Assembly: GCA_903848275.1 (NCBI GenBank)
Contig: CAINGB010000030.1
Span: forward strand, 1-58,902
DNA: 58,902 nucleotides
Direction of reading: 5' to 3'
Source: Candidatus Uhrbacteria bacterium
GTDB taxonomy: Bacteria; Patescibacteriota; Patescibacteriia; UBA9934
Positions within the stretch are counted from its first letter, which is position 1. Each line of letters opens with the position of its first letter. Below the pieces are notes generated by a model that had not been told where the DNA came from, searched no databases, and saw nothing but the letters and a program-made list of their open reading frames with translations. Shown piece after piece: positions 23,644 to 55,757 of this stretch. The position numbers and the translations under genes were made by a program.

Positions 23644-23674
23644 GTCGACCAACACCGGGTGTTGATTATGAAGA
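23644..23674 (+). repeat. 31-nt hairpin motif gtcgaccaacaccgggtgttgattatgaaga, copy a
   Basis: 54 nt upstream of minus-strand gene start 23590; stem caacac/gtgttg. Confidence 0.7.
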
Positions 23675-23680
23675 TGAGAG

Positions 23681-23689
23681 TGTTACAAT
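23681..23689 (+). promoter_or_regulatory. extended -10 box TGtTACAAT, 9 nt before ATG 23699 (leaderless); TTGATT 16 nt upstream
   Basis: tgttacaat at 23681-23689; ttgatt at 23662-23667. Confidence 0.5.
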
Positions 23690-23698
23690 GTCACCATT

Positions 23699-24355
23699 AT
23701 GAAAACTATTGTTATTACTGGGGCGAGTAGAGGGATTGGAAAGGCGTTAGCGGAGAGGTTTTTGGCGGAGGGAGAGAGGGTGATTGGGACGTCGCAGAGT
23801 GGGACGGCGGATTATGAGCACCCGAACCTGATTATTATTCAGTTGGAGTTGGCGAGTAAGGAGAGTCGCGAGAGTTGTGCAAAGAAGATTGCGGAACTCA
23901 CAGAGTCGATCGATATTCTCATCAATAATGCTGGGATTTGGCACCCGACGGATAATAAGACTATTATCGATGTAGCTGTTTTGCAGGAGACATTAGAGGT
24001 CAACATGATTGGCCCGATCGATTTTACGGAACGAGTGTTGCCGCTCGTTAAAAAAGGTGGTCAGATAATTAACCTGTCGTCGCGCCGCGGATCAATGAGT
24101 TATACGACTGCGGATATTTATCCATGTTATTGTATTTCTAAAGCTGGAATTAACATGTTCACTCGGCTGTTGGCGGCTAGGTTGAAGAATAAAGTAACTG
24201 TTTCGGCCGTACATCCAGGCGTCGTCAAAACGGAGATGAGTGACTGGAAGGGTGAGATTTTGCCAGAAGAAGCCGCTGACGATATTTATAAGCTGACGAT
24301 GAGTGATAAAGAGACTGGACAGTTTTGGTATAAGGGGGAGATTTTTCCGTGGTAA
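23699..24355 (+). CDS. SDR family oxidoreductase
   Basis: 218 aa; TGASRGIGKA cofactor motif, NNAG, catalytic YxxxK (YCISK). Confidence 0.85.
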   Translation: MKTIVITGASRGIGKALAERFLAEGERVIGTSQSGTADYEHPNLIIIQLELASKESRESCAKKIAELTESIDILINNAGIWHPTDNKTIIDVAVLQETLEVNMIGPIDFTERVLPLVKKGGQIINLSSRRGSMSYTTADIYPCYCISKAGINMFTRLLAARLKNKVTVSAVHPGVVKTEMSDWKGEILPEEAADDIYKLTMSDKETGQFWYKGEIFPW

Positions 24356-24365
24356 TTAATCAAAT

Positions 24366-24782
24366 ATGTATCTATTTCCAATCATCGTTAAGAAGTCGGC
24401 CATTGAAGGTAGTGGTGTGTTTGCTGACACGGATATTGGTGAGGGCGAAATTGTTTGGAGGTTTAGTCCTGAACATGATTTAATAAAGACGACCGAGGAT
24501 TACGAGATGCTCGATGAGGCTGGGAAAGCGGAGATTCGCAAGGTTGGCTATGTCTCCCCCACTTCTGGCAAGTGGGTTTATCCGCCAATTGGCGACGCGG
24601 CTCGGTATACGAATCATTCGGAGGTGGATAATAATCTGACAGCAGTTTTTGATGTGGCGGTTTCTGACGAACCATTTTTTGTGGCGAAGAAAAATATTGT
24701 TCGAGGCGAAGAGTTGATAGTTAACTATGTTGAGTTTGATGCTTCGATTAAGAAGGTGAGGCCGGAGTGGATGGTTAAGTAA
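24366..24782 (+). CDS. SET domain protein (putative protein-lysine methyltransferase)
   Basis: 138 aa; GSGVFA, RYTNHS, EELIVNYVEF match the SET core. Confidence 0.7.
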   Translation: MYLFPIIVKKSAIEGSGVFADTDIGEGEIVWRFSPEHDLIKTTEDYEMLDEAGKAEIRKVGYVSPTSGKWVYPPIGDAARYTNHSEVDNNLTAVFDVAVSDEPFFVAKKNIVRGEELIVNYVEFDASIKKVRPEWMVK

Positions 24783-24810
24783 GTAACTAAACTTTTAGTG
24801 TAGATTAATG

Positions 24811-26082
24811 CTACAACAGCAGGTCATCCAGCTCGCATGATTCTAGAGCCGACTTATTGAGCACAATTTGCTCCTGCTGGTTGAGGTTGTCGGCTGTCAG
24901 GCGAATAACTTTGGTGGCAATGCTATCGCCTAACATTACTCGGTTGGTTTTTTGGAAATACTGTTCTGTTTTTTGGTAAAAGAGCGTGGCATACTGGAGA
25001 AGTTTGTCTTTTGGGGGCTGTCTAGAGCTTGAACCATTACTAGAGAATTCAATTATTTTGTTCACCTTATCATCTGTCACGATTGAAAGATCGCCTTCAT
25101 TGAAGTCGATCCAGTAATCACTTATCGTGTAGGCGATGCGGACGGAACCGCCGCCTTCGATGTTATACCAGAAGAAAAATGACCAATTATTTGAGCGAAG
25201 ATCCTGAAAGATACTAGCACTCTTAAGCTGCCCGATATTATGGATACGGTAATCATCGAGCAATCGTAAATAGCGCCCAAACCAGTCACTAAGCCAAACG
25301 TCTATCTCCTGACGATTAACAAATAGCGGCACCAAATCGTGTTTGAGATTGACTGGATTGACCGTGTTCATTTTGAGAGTGAGTTTGTCAAAGAGGGTGC
25401 AGAGATCTTTAACGTCACTGACTTTAGCATTCAAGTAATCAAAATCTGGGACAATCTTTTTGCCCATGTACCACAATAGATCATATATATCTCGACCCTT
25501 TTCGTCATAAATATCGCCGCCAATGCTGCGTTTGCCGCGCAAGAAAATGGCGGCCAATTTACTGGCCATTAAGGCCCCTAAATTATAGGTGAGGATACTA
25601 AACGATAACTGGCTATGATTGATCGAGCGTCGTTCAGTGACAGTTTTTGGAGCAACAAAGTGATTGAGATCAATCTTGACATGAACCTGCTTGGAAGGAT
25701 GACCAGCACTCAGTTCATCGTCGAGCAAGAACTTAAGAGTTAGGCCGCGTTCGTTGGTTGTTTTGATGCCTAAGAAACCATCTTCAGAACCGTAGTTGCT
25801 AACAAAATAATCTTCGATATCTGTCTTAAGGCTCTCTAGATATTCGTTGGAGACAGGATGAGAAATTTCAAAATCTAAATCAACCGACATGCGGTTCAAG
25901 CCATGAATAATGCGCAAGGCAGAACCACCATACATGACCCACTGGCTGTATTTTGGATGGTGATAGATGAAGTTGAGCACATAATACTGGAGCTCTTCTT
26001 TGTAGGCGTTGTAGCGAGTTTCTGCTGTTACTCCCTGATTTGATGGTAGACTTTTTAAAATAGCGAGAATCTGCTTACTCAT
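24811..26082 (-). CDS. AbiEii/AbiGii family nucleotidyltransferase toxin with long C-terminal extension
   Basis: 423 aa; YGGSALRIIHGLNRMSVDLDFEI matches the GG(T/S)AL...R.S.DLDF core. Confidence 0.75.
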   Translation of the reverse strand: MSKQILAILKSLPSNQGVTAETRYNAYKEELQYYVLNFIYHHPKYSQWVMYGGSALRIIHGLNRMSVDLDFEISHPVSNEYLESLKTDIEDYFVSNYGSEDGFLGIKTTNERGLTLKFLLDDELSAGHPSKQVHVKIDLNHFVAPKTVTERRSINHSQLSFSILTYNLGALMASKLAAIFLRGKRSIGGDIYDEKGRDIYDLLWYMGKKIVPDFDYLNAKVSDVKDLCTLFDKLTLKMNTVNPVNLKHDLVPLFVNRQEIDVWLSDWFGRYLRLLDDYRIHNIGQLKSASIFQDLRSNNWSFFFWYNIEGGGSVRIAYTISDYWIDFNEGDLSIVTDDKVNKIIEFSSNGSSSRQPPKDKLLQYATLFYQKTEQYFQKTNRVMLGDSIATKVIRLTADNLNQQEQIVLNKSALESCELDDLLL

Positions 26083-26686
26083 ATTTTTTGATCATGGCAT
26101 TAAATCTGGTCTGCTCGACAGTGTCTAAGTCGTCCCAATCGATACGAAGCTGCTCGATTACGCTTTTAATATTGACGACCGAAGTACCGCTAAACTGATT
26201 AGTCCGGAAGTAGATGAGATCGAAGAGAGCTTTGGCCGGTGAGGCGATGAAGAAGTCGAACTGGCCTTTAACTAGAGAGAAGTCGCCAAATAGCTCGCTA
26301 TTAATTGACTGATAGGCGAAATCCCCCACTTTGGTCTGGTAATTTCTAGTCACCTTACGAGTCACTGAGGTGATGGAATGAATAGCTTCGGTGGTGAGCC
26401 CATAGTACTGGAGAGCAGCCCAGGAGCTAACGTAGGAGGGCTGACGAATGACGTTGGCAAGGTAAAAAGTGTAAGAAATGTCGCCTTTATTTTTGTTGTA
26501 AAAGTCGGTCGTGACATAAAGGCCGTTTTTGAGACGAATAATGTCATGATGACCAATAAAGCGGCTAATATAGGTGTCAATCGTCGCCTGTGTAAGGCCC
26601 AAGCTCTGGCCAAGCTGAAAAACCCCCTGTTTAGTGAAGTGGGGTAAAGACTTGAGCTGAGAAAGTAGATTCTGCTTGCTTTTCAT
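26075..26686 (-). CDS. AbiEi family antitoxin/transcriptional regulator
   Basis: 203 aa; N-terminal wHTH-like segment and RLKNGLY motif; 8-nt overlap with AbiEii gene. Confidence 0.7.
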   Translation of the reverse strand: MKSKQNLLSQLKSLPHFTKQGVFQLGQSLGLTQATIDTYISRFIGHHDIIRLKNGLYVTTDFYNKNKGDISYTFYLANVIRQPSYVSSWAALQYYGLTTEAIHSITSVTRKVTRNYQTKVGDFAYQSINSELFGDFSLVKGQFDFFIASPAKALFDLIYFRTNQFSGTSVVNIKSVIEQLRIDWDDLDTVEQTRFNAMIKKYE

Positions 26687-26704
26687 AATTATGACAAAAG
26701 TGTA

Positions 26705-26839
26705 TCATATTTGAAAAGGTTTGTCCATGACTGATATCCACAGTCGCTCTTTCACTTTCCATCTCTTAGCCCAACCATGCTTATGTGGTTTGCATAATGC
26801 ACAGCTAGAGCCTCTTTTGCGCTTATATTGCTTACGCAT
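26705..26839 (-). CDS. 44-aa basic mini-protein with CxxCKPHK motif
   Basis: MRKQYKRKRGSSCALCKPHKHGWAKRWK; starts 1 nt after the stop of the upstream zinc-ribbon gene. Confidence 0.4.
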   Translation of the reverse strand: MRKQYKRKRGSSCALCKPHKHGWAKRWKVKERLWISVMDKPFQI

Positions 26840-26840
26840 A

Positions 26841-27110
26841 TTATTTGCGCCAATAACATTTAGGGCATTCCCAGTATTCTTCGTAACCGTGAGCTTTTGG
26901 ATCTCTCTTGAGTACATTAATCTTGCGGCCGATGAAAAGTATGGTGTTCGCGCCTCCCCTACTAGCTCGAACTAGTTCAGCTTGAGAATACAAAGATATT
27001 TTTCCAAAGTAATGTCCGCCTCGCATTTTTTTGTCAGGATAGATAAATACCCTAATTGCTCTGGCGCAAATTGAACAGGACTTTAGCAGCCGCTTTGATG
27101 TTTTTATCAT
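26841..27110 (-). CDS. zinc-ribbon protein, function unknown (ATG 27110; TTG 27131 alternative)
   Basis: CSIC...CPKC cysteine pairs at both ends. Confidence 0.45.
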   Translation of the reverse strand: MIKTSKRLLKSCSICARAIRVFIYPDKKMRGGHYFGKISLYSQAELVRASRGGANTILFIGRKINVLKRDPKAHGYEEYWECPKCYWRK

Positions 27111-27170
27111 AGCTAATTCTATAGACGGCAAAATTAGCGAAATGTTACACCGATAAATTCAACTCTTAGC

Positions 27171-27201
27171 GTCGACCGACCCTTAGGGTTGATTATGAAG
27201 A
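27171..27201 (+). repeat. 31-nt hairpin motif, copy b (gtcgaccgacccttagggttgattatgaaga)
   Basis: Stem changed to cgaccc/gggttg (pairing kept); 61 nt upstream of minus-strand ATG 27110. Confidence 0.65.
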
Positions 27202-27253
27202 AATGAAACACCGCCCCGCGAAGGACTCCACGGGGAGGTGCTTCGAGAGGCGG

Positions 27254-27643
27254 CTAGGACGGAGGGAAGAAGGTGAGAGTCCTACCTCCATCCTGACGGT
27301 CGATGACGGTGATGATCCAGTTCTGCTCAGCTGGCAAATGGCGACGCAACGTCTGTTGGAAGGCCTTCATGAATGCGCCACGCTCGGCAACGTCGTCGCT
27401 CGACCAACCACAGGATGGGGTCGAAAGGTTCTCGAAGGTGATGACCGCGATGGTCGGGTTGCCTCCGTTCTGTTCGTACACTTCCCCGAGCACGAAGACA
27501 ACTGGCTCGAATTCGCGAAAGCGATACCGTTGATCAACGAGACATTGGTAAAGATCGAGCCGAAGATCTCGCCGCCAGTCAGCTGGTTTGCAGTCCGACG
27601 GAATGGGGTGGTTTTCAAGGCGGATGATGAGAGGAATACTCAT
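27254..27643 (-). CDS. hypothetical protein (GC-rich insert)
   Basis: 129 aa; GGAGAG before ATG; hairpin ccccg...cgggg downstream; antisense ORF 27203..27712 judged spurious. Confidence 0.55.
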   Translation of the reverse strand: MSIPLIIRLENHPIPSDCKPADWRRDLRLDLYQCLVDQRYRFREFEPVVFVLGEVYEQNGGNPTIAVITFENLSTPSCGWSSDDVAERGAFMKAFQQTLRRHLPAEQNWIITVIDRQDGGRTLTFFPPS

Positions 27644-27777
27644 GAGCTCTCCATGGTTGAGCCGTGTCAGCTTAGCGAGATAGAGGTTTTTTGTCTAGTG
27701 TTAGGTAGATAATGCGTTTTGACTTTTGCGGTGTTTTCAGGCAAAATTGACGGGTTGAAAGATGTTTATATTTGCAT

Positions 27778-29628
27778 ATGAAACCGTTATCAAAAAACAT
27801 AATTGTCGCCTTGTTGGTGGTTTTAGCGCTTGGCGTCATTTTCTCTACCTATGACATGGGTGGCAAGAAAGCCCCGGAAACTATTGGCATTAGCGCCTTG
27901 GTGACTAAGATTGAGGCCGGTGAGGTTAAGAGTATTGACGTGGAGGAGAATTCGTTGACGATTACGGGCAAGGATGACACCGAGTTTTTGGCGAACAAAG
28001 AAAGTGCCCAGTCGCTGAACGAGATTTTGACTGGTTACGGCGTCACAGCTGAACAGTTGAAGGCCGTGAGTATTGAGGTGAAGGAGCCAAGTGCTTTGAC
28101 GTCGCTCGTGCGTAATTTGTTGCCGACGTTGCTGTTCGTGCTGATTTTTGGCGCGGTGTTGTGGTTCTTTTTGCGCCAAATGCAGGGAGCTAATAGTAAG
28201 GCGATGACTTTTGGTCAGGCTAATGTGAAAGAGTCGACCAACAAGAAAAATCGCGTGACGTTTGCGGAAGTGGCAGGTGCCACGGAAGCGAAGGAGGAAT
28301 TGGGCGAGATCGTCGAGTTCTTGAAGACGCCAAAGAAGTTTGCTGATTTGGGCGCGAAGATCCCGAAAGGCGTGTTGCTGATGGGCCCGCCAGGCACTGG
28401 TAAGACTTTGATGGCGCGCGCGGTGAGTGGTGAGGCGAACGTGCCGTTCTTTCATATTAGTGGATCCGAATTCGTGGAGATGTTTGTGGGTGTGGGTGCC
28501 AGCCGCGTCCGCGATTTGTTTGCTCGGGCTAAGAAAGCAGCGCCATGCATTGTGTTTATTGACGAAATTGATGCAGTCGGGCGTCAACGTGGTAGCGGCA
28601 CTGGTGGTGGCCATGACGAACGGGAGCAGACGCTCAACCAGATTTTGGTCGAGATGGACGGCTTTGAACCAAACTTGGGTGTGATCGTGATGGCGGCGAC
28701 TAACCGCCCAGACGTGCTCGACTCAGCGCTGCTCCGCCCAGGACGCTTTGACCGTCGCGTAACGCTCGACCGCCCAGACTTGAAAGAACGCGAGGCGATT
28801 CTGAAGATTCATGCCGTGAGCAAACCGTTAGCAGCCGACGTCGACCTCCAACGCATTGCCGCTAGGACACCAGGCATGGCTGGGGCAGATCTGATGAACA
28901 TCATGAACGAGGCGGCGATTTTGGCAGCCCGGGCAGATAAGAAAGAAACCTCGCAGAAAGAATTACTCGACGCGATTGAGAAAGTGATGATGGGACCAGA
29001 ACGCAAGAGCCATATTTTGGGCGAGGAAGAACGTTTGGTGACGGCTTACCACGAGGCTGGCCACGCGGTGGTTGGCCACTTACTTCCCTACTGTGATGAT
29101 GTGCATAAGGTTTCCATCATTGCCCGCGGCAGAGCAGCAGGATATACCATGAGTATTCCGGACGAGGACCGCAAGATGCATTCGCGCAATGAGTTCTATG
29201 ACGACTTGGCCATGACGCTCGGTGGGTACGTGGCTGAACAAGAAATTTTTGGCGACTTTACAACTGGGGCTAGCAACGACCTGCAGAAGGCCACGGCGAT
29301 GGCCCGCGAACTCGTCACGCAGTTCGGCATGAGTGAGCTGCTCGGCCCACGAACGTACGGCAGTGATGATGATAGGCCAATGTTCGGCCGTGGTGAGGCG
29401 CGTGATTATTCCGAGAAGATTGCGGAGCAGATTGATAGCGAAATGAACCGCGTGTTGGCGGATGCGCTGCAGAAGGCTCGTACGATGGTGCGCGAGCATC
29501 GGACAGAATTGGATAAGATCGTTAACGAATTACTGGTGAAAGAAACAATTGAAAAAGAAGCGTTCGAAACTTTACTTGGCCCGTCGATTAAGCGACCGAA
29601 GGTGACGGTGCAACCTGTCCGCGCCTAA
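27778..29628 (+). CDS. ftsH: ATP-dependent zinc metalloprotease FtsH
   Basis: Walker [17 protein letters not shown] zinc site; ATG 27778 preferred over TTG 27772. Confidence 0.95.
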
Positions 29629-29674
29629 GAATAAAAGTCATCTCGAAAAAAAACTCGGGATGATTTTTATTTTG

Positions 29675-29683
29675 TGCTATACT
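29675..29683 (+). promoter_or_regulatory. extended -10 box TGcTATACT upstream of 29704 (this gene has a GGAGG SD)
   Basis: tgctatact 29675-29683; ggagg 29696-29700. Confidence 0.45.
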
Positions 29684-29703
29684 ACAAATAATCTTGGAGG
29701 ATT

Positions 29704-30705
29704 ATGAAACCATATTCAACTGTTTACCGGCCACTACTTTTAAGAGCGCTGAAAAGTGCTTGGCAACACAAAATGTTGTGGGTTTTTGCTTTCTTGGCTG
29801 GGATCATTCAGACTGGAGCAATCACTAATGATGTCTTGCGCTTAACGCCGAAGATCGGTGGACAAGCGTTGTCATGGGCCACACTGCGGGCGTCGTTTGA
29901 AACTTTTACTTTTCGCGAAAACTTCTTTCATGCTTTTTTTGGGAATAGCGAACAACAAACTATTACCGCTATCGTCGCAGCTACGGTCTGCGCAGTCCTG
30001 TTGGCAATTATCATTTTAACAGCCCAGCATTTGGTACTCTTGCATATCCACCGCACGGCAAAAAAGAAGAAGCAGCCGGGCTTTTGGGTTACTTTACGAT
30101 CGATCAGAGGGGCGCATTTGAGTCGCTTATTTGCCGTTAATGCGCTCAGCCGCTTGAGTTTGGCAATTTTGCTGTTGCTTGGGGTGCTGGCGATTAGAAA
30201 CTTAATGCTATGTACACCAGCTTTTGTGCATCTGTACGCTAGTCTCGGAATATACTTAATTATTATTCCGACGGCCTTTGCTATTAATGCGCTCTCAATG
30301 CTGACGTTGCTACACGTAGTTCGTGAAAATGATGATCTCCATCATGCTTTACAGAAAGCGACGACATTTTTACATAAGCATTGGTTGGCGGTGCTGGAGT
30401 TCTCTATTACCTTGTTCTTTATAAACTTTATTTTCAGTTTGTTCTTGCTGGCCGCGGCTTACTTGCTGGCACTCGTGTTCCTGACCTTATCGGCGCTGGC
30501 GGCTAGCACTATTGTCACCGTCTTACTGACCCTACTCGCTTCAAGCTTTATCATCCTGCTGTTCTTCGTCTTGTTTGATGGCTTCATGGTAAGCTTTAAC
30601 TACGCCGCTTGGAGTGAGTTCTTAGAACGATTCGACAAGTTGCCCGTTCACCCACGGAGCGAACATGTAGCCAAGCACCTCATCCGCCGCTTGAGTTCAC
30701 GCTAA
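29704..30705 (+). CDS. hypothetical polytopic membrane protein
   Basis: 333 aa, about 6 TM helices. Confidence 0.6.
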   Translation: MKPYSTVYRPLLLRALKSAWQHKMLWVFAFLAGIIQTGAITNDVLRLTPKIGGQALSWATLRASFETFTFRENFFHAFFGNSEQQTITAIVAATVCAVLLAIIILTAQHLVLLHIHRTAKKKKQPGFWVTLRSIRGAHLSRLFAVNALSRLSLAILLLLGVLAIRNLMLCTPAFVHLYASLGIYLIIIPTAFAINALSMLTLLHVVRENDDLHHALQKATTFLHKHWLAVLEFSITLFFINFIFSLFLLAAAYLLALVFLTLSALAASTIVTVLLTLLASSFIILLFFVLFDGFMVSFNYAAWSEFLERFDKLPVHPRSEHVAKHLIRRLSSR

Positions 30706-30714
30706 TCTTCCAAC

Positions 30715-36196: not shown

Positions 36197-36241
36197 ACGC
36201 TGACAGTACCTAGCACACACCTGGCACGAGCCTGGCACCGA

Positions 36242-44756: not shown

Positions 44757-44761
44757 AGAAA

Positions 44762-45823
44762 TTATAATGAATGGCGCTCGAGCACGCCGGCTTTATAGAG
44801 TTGAACGAGGGATAAGAAGGCGGCCAGGATAGTTGGGCCGACGATGATGCCGATGGGACCGAAGACTTGAAGGCCGCCGAGAATGGTGAGAAGGACGAGT
44901 AACGGGTGCATACTGGTGCGGCCTTGAACGATGATGGGACGGAGGAAGTTGTCGACCAAACCGACCAGGACGATGGACCAAATAGCCAAGCCGATGCCAG
45001 CGGCTTCGTGGCCAGAGAGGAAGAGGTAGACGCAGGCTGGAGCCATGACGCTCGCCGTGCCGATGAACGGAATGTTGGAGGCGACAATGACTAGGGCGGC
45101 CCAAATGAGGGCGCCAGGTACGCCGAAGATAGTCATACCAATACCAGCGATGATACTTTGGGCTAAGGCGACAACAACAGAACCGGCAACGACAGCACGG
45201 ATGGTACCAGTCATGTTAGAAAGAATATTGCTGTCGGTTTTGTCGCGCAGTGGGCTGAGGACGAGGGCTTCGTGGACCAAGCGCTCGCGATCGACCAAGA
45301 AGTAGTAGAGACAGATGAAGAAGACGAAAGTTTTAAAGAGGAAGTCACCAGCGCTCGAGAAGATTTGGCCGAGGTGTTGCGACGCCCACTGTGCAATACC
45401 GAGTAAACCGGCCCGGAGATCGATTGCGACGATATATTGCTGGACGGCTATTGGGAGATGCTGAAAGAAAGGATTTGCTCCAAAATTAATGGCGAAGATT
45501 GAGCCGTTTTCGGCGATGAGAGTTTGGGCTAGGTTAACGGCCTGGTTAACCATGACGATGCCGGTGATAACTAGTGGCACAACGATGAGGACCAAGACCA
45601 GCAGGACAATAAGGAAAGACGACACGCTGCGGTGACCGCCAAGTTTACGCCGTAGGGCGCGTTCGAGCGGCGTCGTGATAACAGCCATGACGCCCGAAGT
45701 CATGAGGACGATGGCATAGGGCTGAAGGGTTTGCCAGAAGAGAAAGCCGACGATAAGTGAAACGCCCAGGAAAAACCAGCGGGCGATATGTTCGTGTTCA
45801 GAAAGCGTTGCGAGTTTGGCCAT
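44762..45823 (-). CDS. AI-2E family transporter (PerM/UPF0118)
   Basis: 353 aa from MAKLATLSE; polytopic; C-terminal NFLRPIIVQGRTSMHPL motif. Confidence 0.8.
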   Translation of the reverse strand: MAKLATLSEHEHIARWFFLGVSLIVGFLFWQTLQPYAIVLMTSGVMAVITTPLERALRRKLGGHRSVSSFLIVLLVLVLIVVPLVITGIVMVNQAVNLAQTLIAENGSIFAINFGANPFFQHLPIAVQQYIVAIDLRAGLLGIAQWASQHLGQIFSSAGDFLFKTFVFFICLYYFLVDRERLVHEALVLSPLRDKTDSNILSNMTGTIRAVVAGSVVVALAQSIIAGIGMTIFGVPGALIWAALVIVASNIPFIGTASVMAPACVYLFLSGHEAAGIGLAIWSIVLVGLVDNFLRPIIVQGRTSMHPLLVLLTILGGLQVFGPIGIIVGPTILAAFLSLVQLYKAGVLERHSL

Positions 45824-45875
45824 ATTGCGTACATCATACCAAATTCTAATAACTCGTAACATGGCAACACTTAGA

Positions 45876-45905
45876 GTCGACCAACACTTAGTGTTGATTT
45901 GCAGA
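45876..45905 (+). repeat. hairpin motif, copy c (gtcgaccaacacttagtgttgatttgcaga)
   Basis: 53 nt upstream of minus-strand ATG 45823; extra caacacttag half-copy at 45865-45874. Confidence 0.6.
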
Positions 45906-45943
45906 AATAACAAAAATCCCCCGCCGAAGCTGGGGAGTTTTTA

Positions 45944-46240
45944 TTATGGGATGAGCACTTCGTTGTCCGCGGCGATGATTTGTTGAAAGTTGGGGCTGGT
46001 GTCGGCCCAGTCGGTGATGTCGACGCGAACTGGGAGATAGGACTCTGACATGGCGTCTTTGAGTTGACTGAGAACGATAGACGCTGTCGGAGTATCGCTC
46101 ATAATGCAGAGATCGATGTCAGAGTAGGGCTTTTTAGTGCCACGAGCTCGTGAGCCGTAGAGAACGACTTTGGTGTTAGGCAGTAATCTGGCGAAGATAT
46201 CGTTTATAATGATTACCCACTCCGGTTTTAAATCGATCAT
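45944..46240 (-). CDS. MNT-type nucleotidyltransferase (antitoxin of a HEPN/MNT pair)
   Basis: 98 aa; LYGSRARG...SDIDL minimal nucleotidyltransferase motif. Confidence 0.75.
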   Translation of the reverse strand: MIDLKPEWVIIINDIFARLLPNTKVVLYGSRARGTKKPYSDIDLCIMSDTPTASIVLSQLKDAMSESYLPVRVDITDWADTSPNFQQIIAADNEVLIP

Positions 46241-46689
46241 ACAGTTTTGGTTAATCGGCTTTGTATACCCGCCAACAGTTTAGCCGAAGCCGCTGCAAAA
46301 ATTGGGATAGTTGCGTAGATTGCCGCTGCCTTAACCTCGTCATAAGCATGACTAGTAATATTTCTTTTTTCACGGAAGTCAAACCAAGCACTCACATCAT
46401 CGATTAAGCCAACTTCGCCGCCAATGCGCAAAATATCACGAAAACCAAGTTCGTCGATAGTCTCTGGGCTAAAGCTGGTCACTTCTAGAAATCGCTTAAG
46501 AGTTTTGTGAGCTATCTCGTAAGTTAAAGTGAAACGTCGAATCGCAGCATCACGATTCAGCGATGCCTCAATCCGATTGTCGGTTTTTGCATCTAGAACT
46601 TCCTCTAAACTAGCCTGGTCCTTAGCGAAAATTGATAAATCGAGCTCATCTTTAAGCATACCCTTAAATAGTAACATAGGATAAAACAA
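46237..46689 (-). CDS. HEPN-type nucleotidyltransferase substrate-binding protein (HI0074 family); start uncertain
   Basis: 150 aa; RRFTLTYEIAHKTLKRFL and REKRNITSHAY (R.4-6H HEPN motif); 4-nt overlap with the MNT gene. Confidence 0.7.
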   Translation of the reverse strand: MFYPMLLFKGMLKDELDLSIFAKDQASLEEVLDAKTDNRIEASLNRDAAIRRFTLTYEIAHKTLKRFLEVTSFSPETIDELGFRDILRIGGEVGLIDDVSAWFDFREKRNITSHAYDEVKAAAIYATIPIFAAASAKLLAGIQSRLTKTV

Positions 46690-47174: not shown

Positions 47175-47180
47175 TACAAT
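47175..47180 (+). promoter_or_regulatory. -10 box TACAAT 9 nt before ATG 47190 (leaderless)
   Basis: aaagtacaatggtgtcaatATG. Confidence 0.45.
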
Positions 47181-47189
47181 GGTGTCAAT

Positions 47190-47876: not shown

Positions 47877-47877
47877 T

Positions 47878-48255: not shown

Positions 48256-48256
48256 T

Positions 48257-50209
48257 ATGAACCTGATAAAGACGGAGAACGAGGAGAAGACCAGGAAGAG
48301 TCTTTATCAACGAGTTTGTATCATGTTGCCGACTAGGCGGACTTTCGCCGTGATGGGCGTCGGGCTGACGGTGTTTGTCGTCGTTTTCGGTTCGGCTGGC
48401 TTAGTCCAAGCTAATTACGCTGGACGAGTGTTGCCAGGCGTCAGCTTTGCAAATATTGATTTAAGCGGACTAGATCGCTTGGCAACGACGGAAGTGATTC
48501 AGAAGGCAGTCGACAAGATGCTCGACGTTGGGTTGACGGTGAGCGTAAACGGTAAGAGTCAGAATGTTCCACTGCGTTCGACTAGTATTGAAGCGGCTAG
48601 CGATATAATGACTGTCGACGTCAACAAAGCGGTTGACGCCGTGATGGCGGTTGGTCATGAGGCTGGGCCGTTCGGTTGGCTAAAGGCGCTCGTGGTAGCG
48701 ATTGCGCACAATACACCGGTTAATCCGAATGTAGTGACGGTGAATAGTGCTTTGGCTGAGGCGGAGATTATCAGTGCCTTCCCAGACGCGATAACAGCGG
48801 GCGTACCAACTGACTATAAGATAACGATGAAGAATAATGTGGTTAGCGTGACTGTGACACCGGGAGAAGCAGGGACAGGGCTCGATGTGACGTCAGCGCT
48901 CAATACTTTGTTGACTGACAGTTGGGATTTGTCGCTCAAGCCGCTGACCGTGGCTATAAAGAGTACTAATCCTACGGTTAATAAAAGCCAAGCCGAGAGC
49001 CTTGTCGATCAGGTAAAAGAAGCGATTAAGCAGGCACCATACACTTTGGAGTATGTTGCCGACATGGGGCAGATCGACAAGACCTGGCCAATTACTCAAT
49101 CTGAGTTGATGGACTGGTTGGTGCCAAGTATTGACGAGACTGGGGCACCTAAATTGAACCTCGATGCGGTACAAATGACCGACTTCTTGGCCGATGTACA
49201 TAGTCAGGTAGATGTGTCAGCTCAGGATGCCCGATTCCAGATTGATGGCGAAAAGGTCACGGAGTTTGCCGGCAGCCACAACGGCATTGCGGTGAATGAT
49301 GAGAAGACTATCGCGGCTATTGTTGATTATTTTACGAATAAAGTGCAGAGCACGATCTTGGTGGTGACAGATGTGACGGAGCCGAAGATTACGACTGGAA
49401 CGGTGAATAACCTGGGGATTACCGAGGTGCTGGGTGTCGGTACGTCGAGTTTTGTGAACTCGCCCGGTAACCGTTTGCTCAACATTCAGCACGGCGTCGA
49501 CAAGCTGAACGGTTTACTGATTGCCCCGGGCGAGACCATGTCACTGGTTGAGAAATTAAAGCCATTTACAATTGAGGACGGCTATTTGCCAGAACTCGTC
49601 ATTAAGGGCGATGAGATTAAGCCGGAAGTGGCGGGCGGCTTGTGTCAGATTGGCACGACGACGTTCCGTGCGGTGATGAATAGCGGCTTGAAGGTGGTGG
49701 AACGGCATAATCACTCGTTGGTGGTTAGCTACTACAATGACCCGAGCAACAACAACCCGGGTACTGATGCGACAATTTACGACCCGAACCCGGACTTTAA
49801 GTTCATGAACGATACACCGAACTACATTTTACTGGCGGCTGACATGAACCGCGGTGAGGGCATGCTGCGTTTTACCTTCTGGGGCACGTCTGACGGCCGC
49901 AAGGGGTCCTACACGCCGCCTGAGGTGCTGAGCTGGACTGGTTCTGGGCCGGCTGTGACGAAGGAAACCGACACGCTCGGTCCTGGGGTCAAGAAGTGCC
50001 AGGCGGCTCACCCAGGAGCCACGACAAACTTCACCTATAACGTGACTTACGGCGATGGGACAACACATACGGAAGACTTTTACTCGAGCTACCGGTCGTT
50101 GCCGCAAATCTGTTTGGTGGGAAAAGCCGCCGCGGTGTCAGACCCAGTGGTCACCGACGCACCGCCCACTGATGTCCCGGTGACCAGTGATGTGCCAGTG
50201 ACGCCATAG
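48257..50209 (+). CDS. VanW family protein with N-terminal TM anchor
   Basis: 650 aa; C-terminal GGLCQIGTTTFRAVMNSGL..ERHNHS VanW core. Confidence 0.75.
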   Translation: MNLIKTENEEKTRKSLYQRVCIMLPTRRTFAVMGVGLTVFVVVFGSAGLVQANYAGRVLPGVSFANIDLSGLDRLATTEVIQKAVDKMLDVGLTVSVNGKSQNVPLRSTSIEAASDIMTVDVNKAVDAVMAVGHEAGPFGWLKALVVAIAHNTPVNPNVVTVNSALAEAEIISAFPDAITAGVPTDYKITMKNNVVSVTVTPGEAGTGLDVTSALNTLLTDSWDLSLKPLTVAIKSTNPTVNKSQAESLVDQVKEAIKQAPYTLEYVADMGQIDKTWPITQSELMDWLVPSIDETGAPKLNLDAVQMTDFLADVHSQVDVSAQDARFQIDGEKVTEFAGSHNGIAVNDEKTIAAIVDYFTNKVQSTILVVTDVTEPKITTGTVNNLGITEVLGVGTSSFVNSPGNRLLNIQHGVDKLNGLLIAPGETMSLVEKLKPFTIEDGYLPELVIKGDEIKPEVAGGLCQIGTTTFRAVMNSGLKVVERHNHSLVVSYYNDPSNNNPGTDATIYDPNPDFKFMNDTPNYILLAADMNRGEGMLRFTFWGTSDGRKGSYTPPEVLSWTGSGPAVTKETDTLGPGVKKCQAAHPGATTNFTYNVTYGDGTTHTEDFYSSYRSLPQICLVGKAAAVSDPVVTDAPPTDVPVTSDVPVTP

Positions 50210-50224
50210 TTCAGGCGCGATATG

Positions 50225-50260
50225 ACTGTATACGTTGAGCGTATACGCTCAACGTATACA
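50225..50260. repeat. 36-nt perfect palindrome with three evenly spaced GTATAC hexamers
   Basis: ctgtatacgttgagcgta|tacgctcaacgtatacag, checked base by base. Confidence 0.9.
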
Positions 50261-50286
50261 GAAAACCAGCCGTAATTGGCTGGTTT
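50261..50286. terminator. bidirectional hairpin terminator
   Basis: aaaaccagcc gtaatt ggctggtttt. Confidence 0.75.
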
Positions 50287-50296
50287 TTCCTATTTG

Positions 50297-50322
50297 ACCA
50301 CGTCGGTCGCGACCGACGTGGT
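50297..50322. repeat. 26-nt perfect palindrome accacgtcggtcg|cgaccgacgtggt
   Basis: Checked base by base. Confidence 0.9.
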
Positions 50323-50340
50323 TGACCGCTGGTTCGCGCT

Positions 50341-50437
50341 AAACTGCAGTCAAGAAGATATACCCATTGCACTGGGATCAGCCGGAGCCGAAATCAGGTA
50401 ACAAAATATGTCCCCATGCTTGTCGTGACTGCAGTTT
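50341..50437. ncRNA. candidate structured RNA closed by a 12-bp long-range helix (identity unknown)
   Basis: aaactgcagtca (50341-50352) pairs with tgactgcagttt (50426-50437); no coding potential; strand unknown. Confidence 0.2.
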
Positions 50438-50486
50438 GCCGTTAATCAGCGTTCCTGACACTCGTGACTGCGGAAGGTAACATAGC

Positions 50487-50514
50487 AAAAAGAGCCTGTC
50501 AATAGGCTCTTTTC
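50487..50514. terminator. hairpin terminator downstream of clpP
   Basis: aaaagagcct gtcaat aggctctttt. Confidence 0.75.
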
Positions 50515-50528
50515 GTCGACTTTGGATT

Positions 50529-51119
50529 TTAGGCGGACTTGATGACCTTGTCGACTAGGCCGTACTTTTGGGCGTCCTTGGCACCCATGAACTTGTCGCG
50601 TTCCGTGTCGTCCGTGACTTTGGCCATGGGCTGACCAGTGTGCTTGGCGAGAATGGCGTTTAAGCTCTCTTTCATGAGCATAATGCGCTCAGCGTGGATT
50701 TTGATGTCAGTCGCCTGACCTTCGACGCCGCCCAGAACCTGGTGGATCATGACCTCCGAGTTCGGCAAGGCAAAGCGTTTACCCTTGGCACCAGCGGCGA
50801 GCAAGACGGCGGCCATACTGGCAGCCATACCGATACAGATAGTGCTAACGTCGGGGGCGATGAACTGCATGGTGTCGTAAATGGCGAGGCCAGCGGTAAC
50901 GGAGCCACCTGGAGAGTTGATGTAGATGGTGATGTCTTTGGTTTTGTCCTGGCTGGCCAAGAACAAGAGCTGGGCAATGACAGCGTTAGCGACACCGTCG
51001 TCGATAGCGGTACCCAAGAAGATGATGCGATCTTTGAGCAAACGGGAGTAAATATCGTAAGAACGCTCGCCCTGGGCGGACTTTTCGATGACGATTGGGA
51101 GCATGTAATCATTGCGCAT
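50529..51119 (-). CDS. clpP: ATP-dependent Clp protease proteolytic subunit
   Basis: 196 aa; GMAASMAA (Ser nucleophile), IHQVLGG; full-length ClpP pattern. Confidence 0.95.
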
Positions 51120-51141
51120 AGTGGTAGTAAAGTAGCTGATA

Positions 51142-51822
51142 TTAGGTGTTTTGTAAAGTAATATTCCCCAGGTCGAGCTTGTGAATAGCGGTTGGGTTTA
51201 ATGATTTGATGACGTGCTCGTAGTGCGTAACAAGGAAAATGCCAGTACCTTGAGCGCGGAGTTTAGTGATGACTTCGATTAAGTAGCCGACGGCGTCGGG
51301 GTCGAGACCAGAGTCGGGTTCGTCGAGCAGGGCGTATTTGGGTTTGAGCATGAGGAGTTGGAGTAACTCGCTGCGCTTCTTTTCGCCGCCGGAGAAGCCT
51401 TCGTTCAAACTTCGTTTGGCGAATTTGGGGTCGAGGCGTAAGAGACCGAGGGCTTCTTGTAAGTCGCGTTCGAAGGGCAAAGTGTGAGGGCGAGTGCCGG
51501 TAATGGCTTCGAGGGAGGTACGGAGGAAGTCGTCCATCGGGACGCCGGGGACTTCTGGTGGGGCTTGGAGGGATAAGAAGAGGCCGGCTCGAGCACGTTC
51601 GAAGGTCGGTAATTTAGTGAGATCAATATCATCTAAAACGATTTCACCAGAAGTGACCTCATAGAGAGGGTTAGCCATGAGGGCATTCAAAAGCGTCGAC
51701 TTCCCTGCCCCGTTGACGCCAGAGAGAATGTGCAGCTCGCCGGGAGAGATCGATAAACTGACGCGGTTAATGATGGGTGTTTGGGCGCGGCTGACGGAGA
51801 GATTGTTAATGACGAGCGACAT
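51142..51822 (-). CDS. sufC: Fe-S cluster assembly ATPase SufC
   Basis: 226 aa; Walker [10 protein letters not shown], signature [18 protein letters not shown]. Confidence 0.85.
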
Positions 51823-51824
51823 AT

Positions 51825-52187
51825 TTATTTTAGAGCGGCGTTGAGAGCGCGGAGAGGCAGTAAGGCGCAGTCGAGGCGGCCAGAGGTAGGCTCGATGCCG
51901 AGGAGAGTTAGGAATTCTGATTCACTCGTCCCAGAAGCCCGGCTTAAGCCAGGCTTCTGGGTAAGATGCTCGGTTAGGAGTGAGGCCGATGCAGTTGAGA
52001 GGGCGCAGCCGTGGCCGTCCCATTTTGCTTCGATGATGAGATTGTCGACGATTTTTAAGAAGATATTGCAGACGTCGCCGCAAGTGGGGTTGGCGAGGCG
52101 GGCGGTGTGGGTGGCGTCGGCCAGAATGCCAAAGTTACGGGGATAGCGGGCGTGTTCGAGAATGTTGTCGCGGTAGATGGAGTCCAT
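51825..52187 (-). CDS. sufU: SUF system Fe-S scaffold SufU/NifU-like
   Basis: 120 aa; NPTCGD, GCALSTASAS, C-terminal R.DCA. Confidence 0.8.
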   Translation of the reverse strand: MDSIYRDNILEHARYPRNFGILADATHTARLANPTCGDVCNIFLKIVDNLIIEAKWDGHGCALSTASASLLTEHLTQKPGLSRASGTSESEFLTLLGIEPTSGRLDCALLPLRALNAALK

Positions 52188-52195
52188 AGCGGCGA

Positions 52196-53419
52196 TTAAG
52201 CAAGTTTCTGGCGGGCGGCTTTGAGGCCTTGAATGAAGCGAGCGATGTCTTCGGCCGTAGTATAGAGGCCGAGGCTGGCTCTGGCTACACCGGTCGGTGA
52301 GATGCTCGAGGTGAGTGGCATAGCGCAGTGATGGCCGGCACGGATGGCCACACCTTGTTCGCCCAGGATGGTAGCGAGGTCATGGGGATGGAGGCCGGGG
52401 ACGGTGAATGAAACGACACCGAGACGGTCGTTCATAGTTAACGAGCCGATGATGCGGACGTCGCCGAGAGACAAGAGGCCGACGATAAGTAAGCGGGTCA
52501 TTTCCTCTTCGCGGACGATGATGTTCGACCAGCCGAGGCTCGATAGATAACGACAAGCGGCGGCGAGGCCGATGACGCCAGGGATGTTCGGCGTGCCAGA
52601 TTCGAACTTCCAGGGCGCGTCTTCGTAACTCATAGCCGATGAGGTGACTTCGCGCATCATGCCACCGCCGAGATTCGAGGGGGTGAGCTGTTCGCCGAGG
52701 CTCTGCTCGATAAATAGAACGCCGACGCCCAACGGGCCATACATTTTGTGCGCAGAAAAGACGACGGCGTCAGCGCCCCAGGCTTTGACCGATAATGGGA
52801 GGTGCGGCACGTACTGAGCGGCGTCGACGATGACGAGAGCGCCGTGTTGATGAGCTAATTCGACGATGTCGGCGATGGGATTAACGGTGCCGAGGACGTT
52901 GCTGGCGGCGGTGATGACGACAATTTTTACGCGTTGGCTCAGCATCAACTTGAAGGTGGCAAGATCGAGGCGATAGTCGGCGTCGTGAGGGATCGTTGTG
53001 ATCATCGAAGCTCGTTCAGCGGCGATTTTTTTGAACGGCAAGAGGGCGCTGTGATGCTCCATGCTGCTGACGAGGATGTTGTCGCCGGGTTGTAGGCGAG
53101 GGCTGAGCATGGCGGCGAGCATTTGCAGCGAGGCGGTTGATCCGCTCGTAAACGATATTTCCTGAGGCTCGGCATTAATGAAAGTAGCGACTTCGGCGCG
53201 GGCAGCTTCGTAAGCGTTCGTTGCGAGTTCCGCTTCGGGGTAAAGGCCGCGGTGGACGTTGGCGCGGTAATTTACTTCGAAGTCGACCATGGCTTCGAGC
53301 ACCATCGACGGAAGCTGCGAGGTGGCGGCGTTATCGAGGTACGCTAAATTAGGCCGATTGCGAAAGATCGGAAAGTCGCGCTTGATGTCTTCGATGGTAC
53401 GACTGCCAGGTGTTTCCAT
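52196..53419 (-). CDS. sufS: cysteine desulfurase SufS
   Basis: 407 aa; SAHKMYGP (PLP lysine), RAGHHCA active-site loop. Confidence 0.9.
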   Translation of the reverse strand: METPGSRTIEDIKRDFPIFRNRPNLAYLDNAATSQLPSMVLEAMVDFEVNYRANVHRGLYPEAELATNAYEAARAEVATFINAEPQEISFTSGSTASLQMLAAMLSPRLQPGDNILVSSMEHHSALLPFKKIAAERASMITTIPHDADYRLDLATFKLMLSQRVKIVVITAASNVLGTVNPIADIVELAHQHGALVIVDAAQYVPHLPLSVKAWGADAVVFSAHKMYGPLGVGVLFIEQSLGEQLTPSNLGGGMMREVTSSAMSYEDAPWKFESGTPNIPGVIGLAAACRYLSSLGWSNIIVREEEMTRLLIVGLLSLGDVRIIGSLTMNDRLGVVSFTVPGLHPHDLATILGEQGVAIRAGHHCAMPLTSSISPTGVARASLGLYTTAEDIARFIQGLKAARQKLA

Positions 53420-53421
53420 AA

Positions 53422-54132
53422 TTACGAGTTCAGGAAGGCGTCGGCTAGAACTTGTTTACTGCTGACGTCGTCCAAGCCGCGGGATTGCAGATAAAACAAG
53501 ATGTTTTGGTCCGCGTGGCCGACGGTAGCTCCATGTTTGCACGAGACGTCGTCTGTGGCAACCTGGAGGACGGGGAGCAGATCGGCTTCGGCGGTGGTGC
53601 CGAGGAGGAGAGCGTCGAGGCGTTCACTGGCGACGGATCCGGCAGCGTTGGCGTCGATAATGATGGTGCCGCGGGCGATGGCTTTGGCGCCGTCGTTTAA
53701 GACGAGTTTGGTGGTCAGCTTAGAGGTGGCTTTGGCGAGATGGGTGACTTGGGTAAAGAGGTCAAGGTGACCAGCGACTTTTAAGGCGAAGCGTTCGGTG
53801 TAAGAAGTGTTAGCGGCGAGAGTGATGTGGTGAATACACCTGGAGTATTCACTGACAGTGCCAGTTAGAACAAGTTCGAGGCTCTGCTCGGCGGAAAGCG
53901 ATGAGGTGATTGTGAAAGACGTGTTCGGCGCTAAGGAAAGCGCGAGGTGGCCGAAACCGGTTATTGATAACTCGCCGGCGCCGGATAAAGTGACAGTTCC
54001 CTCCCCTGCTAGCGTCAAAGAGTTATTGACGAGGCTGCCGGCGCCTGAGAATTCGAGGCTTGGCGATGCAAAAACTACGCCGGTGTAATTGGCGTTGATG
54101 TTAAGGCCGTAGTTTTTGACTAAATTGGGCAT
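53422..54132 (-). CDS. sufD: Fe-S cluster assembly protein SufD (short form)
   Basis: 236 aa from MPNLVKNYG; C-terminal CKHGATVGHADQNILFYLQSRGL; the upstream part of the track ORF lies in a GC-rich spacer. Confidence 0.65.
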   Translation of the reverse strand: MPNLVKNYGLNINANYTGVVFASPSLEFSGAGSLVNNSLTLAGEGTVTLSGAGELSITGFGHLALSLAPNTSFTITSSLSAEQSLELVLTGTVSEYSRCIHHITLAANTSYTERFALKVAGHLDLFTQVTHLAKATSKLTTKLVLNDGAKAIARGTIIIDANAAGSVASERLDALLLGTTAEADLLPVLQVATDDVSCKHGATVGHADQNILFYLQSRGLDDVSSKQVLADAFLNS

Positions 54133-54311
54133 AGACTCATTTAAGGCCAAGGCTCGGGGTGCGAAAGTTCGTCGGGTCCTGCCGCTGCGGACCCCGCTGG
54201 GTGCTCGCAAGCTGCGCGCCCAAGCAGGGACCTCCCTTCGCGTCACCCGACTAGAGGCTTTTGGCCTGCCCCTCGCTACTTGGCCTTACAGGCTCGTAAC
54301 AGTTTACTCTA
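54133..54311 (-). other. 179-nt GC-rich structured spacer inside the suf operon
   Basis: aaggccaag (54142-54150) pairs with cttggcctt (54281-54289); several internal GC hairpins; no credible ORF. Confidence 0.5.
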
Positions 54312-55697
54312 CTACCCCACACTCCCCGTCATTTCTAAATCGATGAGACGGTTCAGTTCGATGGCGTATTCGAGGGGGAGTTCGCGGACGATGGGTTCGA
54401 GGAAGCCGTTGACGATGAGACGGCGGGCGGCGTCGGCGTCGAGGCCACGGGAGGCGAGGTAAAACATTTCGGCGTCACCGATGCGGCCAGTCGAGGCTTC
54501 GTGGGCGACGGTTGAGGTTGGTGATTCAACTTTCATGGTGGGGAGAGTGTCAGTCGAGGAGGCGGCGTCGAGGAGTAAGGCGTCACAGACGACGCTGGAG
54601 GTGCTATTTTTGGCGCCGGGGGTGAGGCGAACGTAGCCGCGGTAGATGCTTTTGCCGCCGTCTTTGCTGACGGATTTCGACCTGATGGTCGATGAAGTGT
54701 TGGGCGCGACGTGGATCATTTTGGCGCCAGTGTCTTGAACCTGACCGGCTCCGGCGAAGGCCACGCCCAGGAAGTCGCTGCGAGCTCCCTCCCCACGGAG
54801 GATGCTGGCTGGGTAGAGCATGGTGAGGCCAGAACCGAAGTTACCGTTGACCCATTCCATCACGGCGCCAGCGTCGACCAAAGCACGTTTGGTGTTGAGG
54901 TTGAAAGTGTTCTTGCTCCAGTTTTCGATGGACGAGTAGCGCATGCGGGCCTTGGCGGCCACAAAGATTTCGACGCAACCGGCGTGCAAGGATTGGACGG
55001 TGAAACGTGGCGCGGAGCAGCCTTCGATGTAGTGCAGTTCCGCGCCCTCGTCGACCACGATGAGGGTGTGTTCAAACTGGCCGCCGTGTTTGGCGTTCAT
55101 GCGGAAGTAGGCTTGGAGTGGAATGGTGACCTTAACGCCGGGCGGGACGTAGATGAAGGTGCCACCGCTCCAGACGGCGGCGTGCAGCATGGCGAATTTG
55201 TGGTCATGAATGGGTACGCAGCTGGTCATGAAGTATTTGGCGACGAGGTCTGGGTAGAGTTTGACGGCGGCGTCCATGTTTTCGAAAATAACACCCTTGG
55301 CTGACCATTCGGCTTTGAGGTTGTGATAAATAACGTCACTGTCGTATTGCGCGCCAACTCCAGCTAACAAATCCTGCTCGGTCTTGGGGATGCCTAGTTT
55401 GTCGAAGGTACTGCGAATTTCTGGCGGGACGTCGTCCCAACTTTTTTGCTCGTCGGTATCGGGGCGGACGTAGTAGACGAGGCTGTCGAAGTCGATAACG
55501 GATAAGTCGGGACCCCAGTTGGGCAACGGGGTTTTGAGGAAGAGGTCCAAGGCGGCTAGGCGCTTCTCCAACAACCAGCTTGGTTCCTCTTTTTGACGGG
55601 AAATCTCAACTACAACGTCGCGGCTCAGCCCGGGTTTGGCCTGGTATTTGGGCGCCCCCTGCTGTGATTCGTCGAGAATGGCGCGAAGGCCTTGCAT
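54312..55697 (-). CDS. sufB: Fe-S cluster assembly protein SufB
   Basis: 461 aa; FYLASRGLDADAARRLIVNGF and overall SufB pattern. Confidence 0.9.
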   Translation of the reverse strand: MQGLRAILDESQQGAPKYQAKPGLSRDVVVEISRQKEEPSWLLEKRLAALDLFLKTPLPNWGPDLSVIDFDSLVYYVRPDTDEQKSWDDVPPEIRSTFDKLGIPKTEQDLLAGVGAQYDSDVIYHNLKAEWSAKGVIFENMDAAVKLYPDLVAKYFMTSCVPIHDHKFAMLHAAVWSGGTFIYVPPGVKVTIPLQAYFRMNAKHGGQFEHTLIVVDEGAELHYIEGCSAPRFTVQSLHAGCVEIFVAAKARMRYSSIENWSKNTFNLNTKRALVDAGAVMEWVNGNFGSGLTMLYPASILRGEGARSDFLGVAFAGAGQVQDTGAKMIHVAPNTSSTIRSKSVSKDGGKSIYRGYVRLTPGAKNSTSSVVCDALLLDAASSTDTLPTMKVESPTSTVAHEASTGRIGDAEMFYLASRGLDADAARRLIVNGFLEPIVRELPLEYAIELNRLIDLEMTGSVG

Positions 55698-55726
55698 AAT
55701 GGGTCTATCCTAACACAACAGTGAGG

Positions 55727-55757
55727 GTTGACCAACACCGGGTGTTGATTATGAAGA
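55727..55757 (+). repeat. 31-nt hairpin motif, copy d (gttgaccaacaccgggtgttgattatgaaga)
   Basis: 30 nt upstream of the sufB ATG 55697; its right end supplies the last codons and stop of rnhB. Confidence 0.7.

Follow-up and report, generated by a model that had tools for sequence, protein, structure and literature searches.

The window analysed here, 58,902 nt long, is contig C30 of the genome of a Candidatus Uhrbacteria bacterium (984,837 bp in 48 contigs, 99.3% complete, 51.5% G+C), and it carries four copies (a to d) of a short palindromic repeat which is the subject of this study. The original prediction had described a conserved 31-nt hairpin motif upstream of four unrelated minus-strand genes and had proposed that it is a shared promoter, operator or 5' stabiliser defining a small regulon, or else a mobile promoter cassette. 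In what follows G000 denotes the genome of the window, G001 to G007 compared genomes, and L-numbers further loci or contigs used in the comparison. Copy a (23633..23674) lies between a minus-strand open reading frame (ORF) of 129 aa (23201..23590) and a plus-strand gene for a short-chain dehydrogenase (SDR; 23699..24355, Pfam adh_short 6.5e-38, Pfam being the source of the flank annotation in the window). To the left of copy b (27160..27201) are four minus-strand ORFs of 96, 70, 203 and 423 aa (24811..27131), the last of them AbiEii, and directly before its tail, on the minus strand, is a terminator-like hairpin (27213..27226) of the minus-strand ORF 27254-27643. An AI-2E family transporter gene (44762..45823, minus strand; Pfam 6.7e-48) lies left of copy c (45865..45906), and copy d (55716..55757) stands between sufB (54312..55697, minus strand), the first gene of a sufB-sufD-sufS-sufU-sufC run, and rnhB for RNase HII (55749..56369, minus strand). 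Pfam confirmed sufB, the AI-2E transporter, RNase HII and AbiEii as they had been named, while no family was found for the 129-aa ORF or for the 96-aa ORF that had been called a zinc ribbon. The start codons of the left-hand genes are 54, 61, 53 and 30 nt from the motif start, in agreement with the 30-61 nt given before, and the tail of copy d indeed provides the end of rnhB, TCT TCA TAA, i.e. its last two codons and the stop.

All four copies are real and all lie on the plus strand, but the 31-mer is present in exact form only once, at 23644. The copy at 55727 has one mismatch (these two are the only matches at up to three mismatches, against none in 100 shuffles), and those at 27171 and 45876 differ at 6/31 and 8/31 positions, by our own count in the loop and one stem pair and in copy c also in the tail. 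The genome-wide search that had been suggested as a check was done with a degenerate pattern and gave six matches in G000 and none with the reversed control; it recovers the four copies of the window and adds two, one each on contigs C6 (33979-34010) and C34 (2138-2169). Alignment of the six copies showed that conservation runs 17 nt further to the left than the motif first described and that past the edges of the unit the flanks differ between copies. The full unit is a 32-nt module of two 6-3-6 palindromes with a 2-nt linker, followed by a 10-nt tail ATTATGAAGA; the less conserved palindrome, directly 5' of the 31-mer, had been missed. The module follows the pattern CAACnCnnnGnGTyG-NN-CAACnCnnnGnGTTG, two inverted 15-nt palindromes, with the tail ATTATGAAGA in this genus. 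In copy a the module occupies 23633-23664 and the tail ATTATGAAGA 23665-23674, in copy b 27160-27191 and 27192-27201, and in copy d 55716-55747 and 55748-55757, while copy c has its module at 45865-45896 followed by a diverged tail, ATTTGCAGAA. Copies a and d are each 9/32 positions off the commonest sequence of the family, b is 4/32 and c 6/32 off. The six copies lie between genes or reach no further than the last codons of one. In some copies the module is flipped relative to the tail, with the centre YGGTCA instead of YGACCA, and the queA locus has the doublet in G000, a single palindrome in G001 and none in G003, G005 and G007.

Both palindromes can fold separately, and the 32 nt can also pair as one 13-bp hairpin with a 6-nt centre, the two loops being reverse-complementary in the better-kept copies of the relatives. 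Energy minimization predicts this long hairpin for copies a, b and c, and the minus-strand RNA of copy a is predicted to form it at -21 kcal/mol (z -3.5). Among 19 copies 99.1% of cells are paired in the second palindrome, on the tail side, 77.2% in the first and 84.2% in the long-hairpin model, in which five pairs are changed on both sides and the loop-to-loop pairs take several Watson-Crick types (at one pair UA 4, AU 3, CG 3 and GC 1). In this check of stem conservation the covariation scores of both hairpin models were unmatched in 500 shuffles; as the 19 copies are kin, this is support, not proof, for pairing. The stem change in copy b, which had been said to keep the pairing, is indeed compensated, but only with one G-T pair on the plus strand, to which an A-C mismatch corresponds on the other strand.

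The nature of the repeat follows from its neighbours in other genomes. G000 has nine Pfam Y1_Tnp matches, and when these nine proteins were compared by tblastn with 55 module-bearing loci, two loci matched, one in G001 and the other L089, which belongs to a second Uhrbacteria metagenome-assembled genome (MAG) from another genus. In G001 the ORF of this REP-associated tyrosine transposase (RAYT; REP, repetitive extragenic palindromic) at C5:9276-9833 is bracketed by two modules, one at 9846-9877, 12 nt upstream of the ATG, and one at 9274-9305, from which the ORF takes its ten C-terminal codons, read as QPLALTDPKG, and its stop codon. The layout in L089 is identical, the ORF ending in QPLALTNPKG and a stop. 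A homolog with 62% identity is found in G070 (genus g7; C10:19099-19656), again with a module 12 nt upstream (19669-19700). The G001 and L089 ORFs score 38 and 32 bits on Pfam Y1_Tnp against a cut-off of 23, and HFH and Y-x-H-x-N motifs were recognized by eye in both translations. The stretches that follow the two modules in G001, AATTATGCAATTATGAGA and AATTAGAAGTG, resemble ATTATGAAGA by eye, a similarity which suggests that in this genus the tail is part of the repeat unit.

The family is narrowly distributed. The 32-nt pattern was found in 8 of the 61 genomes of the bacterial family searched, all from two genera, and the reversed pattern in none. G001, which has the RAYT, carries 13 distinct loci, G000 three under the strict and six under the loose pattern, and six other genomes one to six each. 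A search of public genomes with the module without its tail gave 36 loci, mostly in six Uhrbacteria assemblies, with two near-identical copies in contigs labelled otherwise and a few unrelated look-alikes in other phyla; a metagenome scan for the unit with its tail returned five matches, all of them chance, four clearly inside coding sequences of unrelated organisms. Two public contigs from unrelated MAGs, L083 (Planctomycetaceae) and L092 (Chloroflexota), have tandem arrays of a 17-nt unit, CAACGC-N3-G(G/C)GTTG plus 2 nt, which may be analogous hairpin repeats or due to chance. In G001 the copies L099 and L100 (C1:13604 and 15055) lie 1.45 kb apart, agree over about 50 nt on their left side and have small hypothetical ORFs between them, and may be a duplicated gene-plus-repeat unit. 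Among the genomes compared no match to the cognate RAYT above 48% identity was found beyond G001 (100%) and G070 (62%). The best match in G000, at 44% identity, is the Y1 gene on contig C48, which is flanked by a different palindrome. A k-mer comparison of the element with the flanks of the nine G000 Y1 genes stayed at background level, and Y1_Tnp genes are present in all eight genomes of the genus, so their co-occurrence with the element is uninformative.

Since the module brackets a RAYT gene in other Uhrbacteria, we read it as a repeat of the REP type, or of the REPIN type in which two REPs form a hairpin, served by a Y1 HUH-type RAYT; and since G000 has no close copy of this RAYT and its copies are 4-9/32 positions off the commonest sequence, we read those copies as orphan relics. 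This reading, by which the G000 copies were spread by the RAYT of an ancestor and are now immobile, is in our judgement probably correct. The RAYT of the ancestor would have spread the copies as single-stranded hairpins, the copies left in G000 would since have become immobile, and those beside genes could have been taken over as -35 boxes and stop codons, for which they would be usable because the module ends carry TTG and the loops and tail carry TAA or TAG. Of the properties by which REPs and REPINs are recognized (PMC3733652, PMC3337134) four are present here, as the 32-nt repeat (20-40 bp being the usual size) is palindromic, is extragenic, forms an inverted doublet and flanks a RAYT, the last of these in G001, L089 and G070 and not in G000 itself.

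Several observations weigh against this reading. The same two RAYT ORFs score only 47 and 44 bits on NCBIfam REP_Tyr_transpos, where the cut-off is 80, and the absence of a cognate RAYT from G000 rests on an assembly in 48 contigs, although 99.3% complete. For a REP family the copies are few, six in G000 and no more than 13-14 loci in any of the genomes searched. Transposition itself was not observed, and contigs of four DNA runs contained no joint across the stretch between copies a and b (21000-30000). A gene start lies to the left at 6/6 G000 copies and at 11/15 loci, where about half would be expected by chance; this excess could still reflect some use by the host or a preference for targets close to promoters. 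Pairing of the second palindrome is intact in each of the six diverged G000 copies, which may mean that the hairpin has been under selection since the transposase was lost. The tag, GTAG or CGTC, by which the two large REP super-families are defined (PMC3733652) is also absent, CGTC occurring only inside the first palindrome of some copies, and there is instead a 10-nt tail ATTATGAAGA on one side.

In other respects the family resembles the REP/REPIN-RAYT systems exemplified by the E. coli REPtron and the REPINs of Pseudomonas fluorescens (PMC3337134, PMC3733652): the repeat is a short, dispersed, extragenic palindrome which occurs as an inverted doublet and as singlets, it brackets a Y1 transposase gene, several repeat types share a genome, and copies are mostly at gene ends. 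REPINs are described there as two inverted units that fold into a longer hairpin (PMC3337134). Unlike REPs, the unit is very small (15+2+15 nt) and very low in copy number (6 to about 14), and the downstream copy flanking the transposase gene is translated as the last ten residues of the protein. We take the family to be a small, newly described member of the known REP/RAYT kind. In the parts of the literature reached by our search we found no paper that joins RAYT or REP with candidate-phyla-radiation (CPR) names.

All four window copies are at indel breakpoints relative to the collinear contig of G002. Copies a and b enclose 3.5 kb in G000 (23675-27159, with the SDR gene, a SET-domain gene, AbiEii and the ORFs of 203, 70 and 96 aa), where G001 has one copy without the stretch. 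At the ftsH-upstream locus a kinase-like ORF and an antitoxin pair of the Phd type are found instead in G002 and a 1.9-kb contig, and at the site where copy d stands alone in G000, a half copy and a degenerate copy enclose 1.43 kb in G002. Such repeats also appear to mark places of gene-content difference between sister genomes, and recombination between repeats is the simplest reading of these differences. These same patterns are what would favour the view that the element is a site-specific recombination site, of the integron attC or the Xer/dif boundary type, through which gene cassettes would enter and leave, as would the toxin-antitoxin-type genes that adjoin several copies and the same orientation of all copies sharing a contig. 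However, homologous recombination between direct repeats gives the same patterns, the presumed cassettes comprise several genes, with both orientations represented, the four DNA runs contained neither excised nor joined forms, and the element has its own HUH transposase elsewhere. The genome has a single gene of the Phage_integrase family (C20, by rpsO), with no element nearby, and by eye we take its product to be an ordinary XerC/D-type recombinase. Such a recombination site is in our view highly improbable. A dif-like or attC-like site was also rejected by eye, as the centre is 3 nt and not 6-8 bp, the arms are different and an integrase of the integron type is lacking.

Elements of the IS200/IS605 group, with their non-autonomous derivatives that are associated with palindromes, are mobilized by a Y1 HUH transposase which recognizes subterminal single-stranded hairpins together with a short flanking stretch. 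The Y1 HUH transposase is shared with the present family, as would be this mode of recognition, and perhaps also a bias of replication strand, the motif strand being the G-rich strand at 9 of 12 distinct loci, a weak signal. In contrast to IS200/IS605, no left and right end pair enclosing a cargo was identified, the transposase clusters with RAYT-like genes and not with IS200 proper, and no target tetranucleotide is definable. A comparison aimed at a target-site duplication or a precise empty site gave two empty sites that read TTA|TTGATTA and others that do not align. The GC skew of the whole window is uniformly positive (+0.08 to +0.21, overall +0.14) despite many minus-strand genes, the suf operon included.

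That the repeat is instead a shared CATAAT promoter and/or a 6-3-6 operator, through which one regulator would control sufB, the AI-2E transporter, the zinc-ribbon/AbiE cluster and the hypothetical gene together, is very unlikely. In its favour are the symmetry and good conservation of the palindrome, the gene starts that lie left of the 42-nt unit, at 13-75 nt, in 6/6 G000 copies, and GTGACA-18-CATAAT (23665..23694, minus strand), which a promoter scan found at copy a and which contains the CATAAT box of the original prediction. The -35 of this promoter-like site, however, lies in the copy-specific flank, and the scan found none for CATAAT at copies b, c and d, so that a pair is present at one of the four window copies. 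Better sigma-70-type promoters for the left-hand genes were recognized by eye between the element and the ATG, at varying distance from the palindrome, for example TAGACT-17-TGTAAC-9-ATG at copy a (TATAAT in G001), TTGGTC-17-TAGGAT-9-ATG at copy d and TTGACA-17-TAGTTT at rpmE. The tRNA promoters of the window are canonical, TTGACT-17 followed by TATTAT, TATATT or CATTCT. Gene context was read at 15 distinct loci (G000, G001, G002, G007 and the 1.9-kb contig, with six further G001 loci left out), and the left side is a gene start at 11, a gene end at three, one of which lies between the convergent genes of superoxide dismutase and of a 323-aa protein, and unclear at one. The element is missing upstream of orthologs: at the G007 ortholog of the 129-aa gene (64% identity), at sufB in G004 and G005, and upstream of the AI-2E gene in G002, where a gene of about 630 nt occupies the site of copy c, while rnhB ends differently, without the element, in G004, G005 and G006. 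Only at the ftsH-upstream locus is it kept upstream of orthologs, in four genomes (G000, G001, G002 and G007). Degenerate sites are not in surplus, as CAAC-N7-GTTG occurs 24 times genome-wide and 22 times in the reversed control, and outside the six G000 loci the only perfect 6-3-6 palindrome is one in C48. A dimeric operator would leave unexplained the asymmetric 10-nt tail, which is as conserved as the palindrome, and the same sequence brackets a transposase gene elsewhere. The proposed regulon is not supported, and a false lead is removed, that a hidden regulon joins sufB, a transporter and a defence cluster. A SufR-type operator, whose pattern we take to be CAAC-N6-GTTG, was considered and dropped, the spacing here being N7 and the site not being kept at sufB in relatives.

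The proposal of a mobile promoter cassette fared better, since the element is a transposase-associated repeat and its right end seems to donate a -35 box, but to plus-strand genes and so in the direction opposite to that proposed. The ends of insertion sequences carry outward-facing -35 hexamers which form hybrid promoters with boxes in the flank. Similarly, a promoter-like TTGATT-16-TACAAT (23662..23689, plus strand; scan 9/12, with a TG before the -10) ends 9 nt before the ATG of the SDR gene, and its -35 is the right end of copy a. The same arrangement, in which the right-end TTGATT is spaced 16-17 nt from a TACnnT box that the flank supplies 9-10 nt ahead of the ATG, recurs at queA (G000 and G001) and at an antitoxin gene (L023), although the element itself is only 42 nt and no insertion sequence. 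As queA in G003 and G005 has TTGTCA-17-TACGCT or TATCCT and no element, the element appears to have replaced the TTGTCA -35 there, a reading based on comparison of the promoter sequences. In this way some copies seem to supply rightward genes with a -35 (TTGATT) and their neighbours with stop codons. Stop codons in the tail are those of rnhB (G000 and G002), of a gene of about 200 aa (G001 and G002) and of the 323-aa gene (G001), and in the loops those of superoxide dismutase (G001), of a 348-aa gene (G002) and of a SET-domain gene (L022). A -10-like box 9-10 nt before the ATG is also seen in the window at 23690-23701, 45824-45838 and 55698-55712, and at L050 and L054 (queA). The short distance suggests that the mRNAs would be leaderless or nearly so.

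Host use could also act through RNA, the element being a 3' or 5' stabiliser, a site of cistron processing or a partial terminator, which is compatible with a transposase origin. A 3' end of a gene is on the tail side at 8 or 9 of the 15 loci, with a stop codon in the tail at three, the second palindrome is perfectly paired in all 19 copies, and folding z values range from -2.0 to -3.5 (both strands of copies a and b, minus strand of copy c). Many REPs are found 3' of coding regions, and their transcription is plausible (PMC3733652). Against such a role, G-U wobbles show no clear strand preference (plus against minus strand, 3 and 8 for the two-hairpin and 5 and 7 for the long-hairpin model), neither strand has a U-tract after the hairpin, the fold of copy d is not better than those of its shuffles (z -0.2 and -0.9), and copies b and c already have distinct terminator hairpins ahead of them. 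To the right of copy b the conserved stretch proved to be the terminator of the minus-strand ORF, and ftsH has a conserved promoter of its own; Rfam gave no match either at the element or in this stretch (window at gathering thresholds, 27100-27850 at E ≤ 10). We regard a function as RNA element as doubtful. Equally tentative is the idea that the orphan copies have been kept because the host uses them as gene punctuation, i.e. as -35 boxes of leaderless-type promoters (at the SDR gene and at queA), as stop codons and, through the second hairpin, as insulators or RNA-end structures between closely packed transcription units. If true, a selfish repeat would have been domesticated as gene punctuation in the minimal genome of a CPR bacterium.

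Besides these probable REP/REPIN relics, G000 contains other repeat families. Six of its Y1 genes (two on C27, one each on C17, C31, C26 and C48) are each bracketed by a long near-perfect palindrome of their own, with stems of 13-27 bp, and in several of the six pairs the loops are mutually reverse-complementary. The palindrome family of C48, with 22-bp arms and a 6-nt centre, brackets the Y1 gene at C48:11355-11699 (palindromes at C48:11079-11138 and C48:11745-11794) and has further copies at C1:22006, C3:32326 and C27:42339. In the window a half copy of it (36206..36227, plus strand) lies at the site between the superoxide dismutase and convergent genes where G001 has the CAAC element. Altogether G000 carries a C48-type palindrome at two of three tested sites where G001 or G002 has the CAAC element; different repeat families therefore share sites. 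The present family adds one more repeat-transposase pair to a genome of about 1 Mb which already has at least six RAYT-palindrome pairs, so that there are at least seven different ones, and this is unusual, as RAYTs are described as typically single-copy (10.1101/119735). With 6-14 copies each copy can be traced between sister genomes, and the family is a case for following the death of a repeat, its replacement at the same site and its reuse as promoter and stop-codon parts.

The neighbourhoods of the window copies differ in further details between related assemblies. The ORF to the right of copy b (27254-27643, minus strand; 129 aa, no Pfam family) is kept in G002 and deleted in G001, where only its terminator is left beside the element. 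In two other Uhrbacteria assemblies, L076 and L093, a module lies just upstream of rnhB beside sufB, in the neighbourhood of copy d and at a different site. To the right of copy c (45944-46689) are an NTP_transf_2 ORF and an ORF with NTase_sub_bind and a weak HepT-like match, also present in G002, which look like a toxin-antitoxin pair of the MNT/HEPN type.

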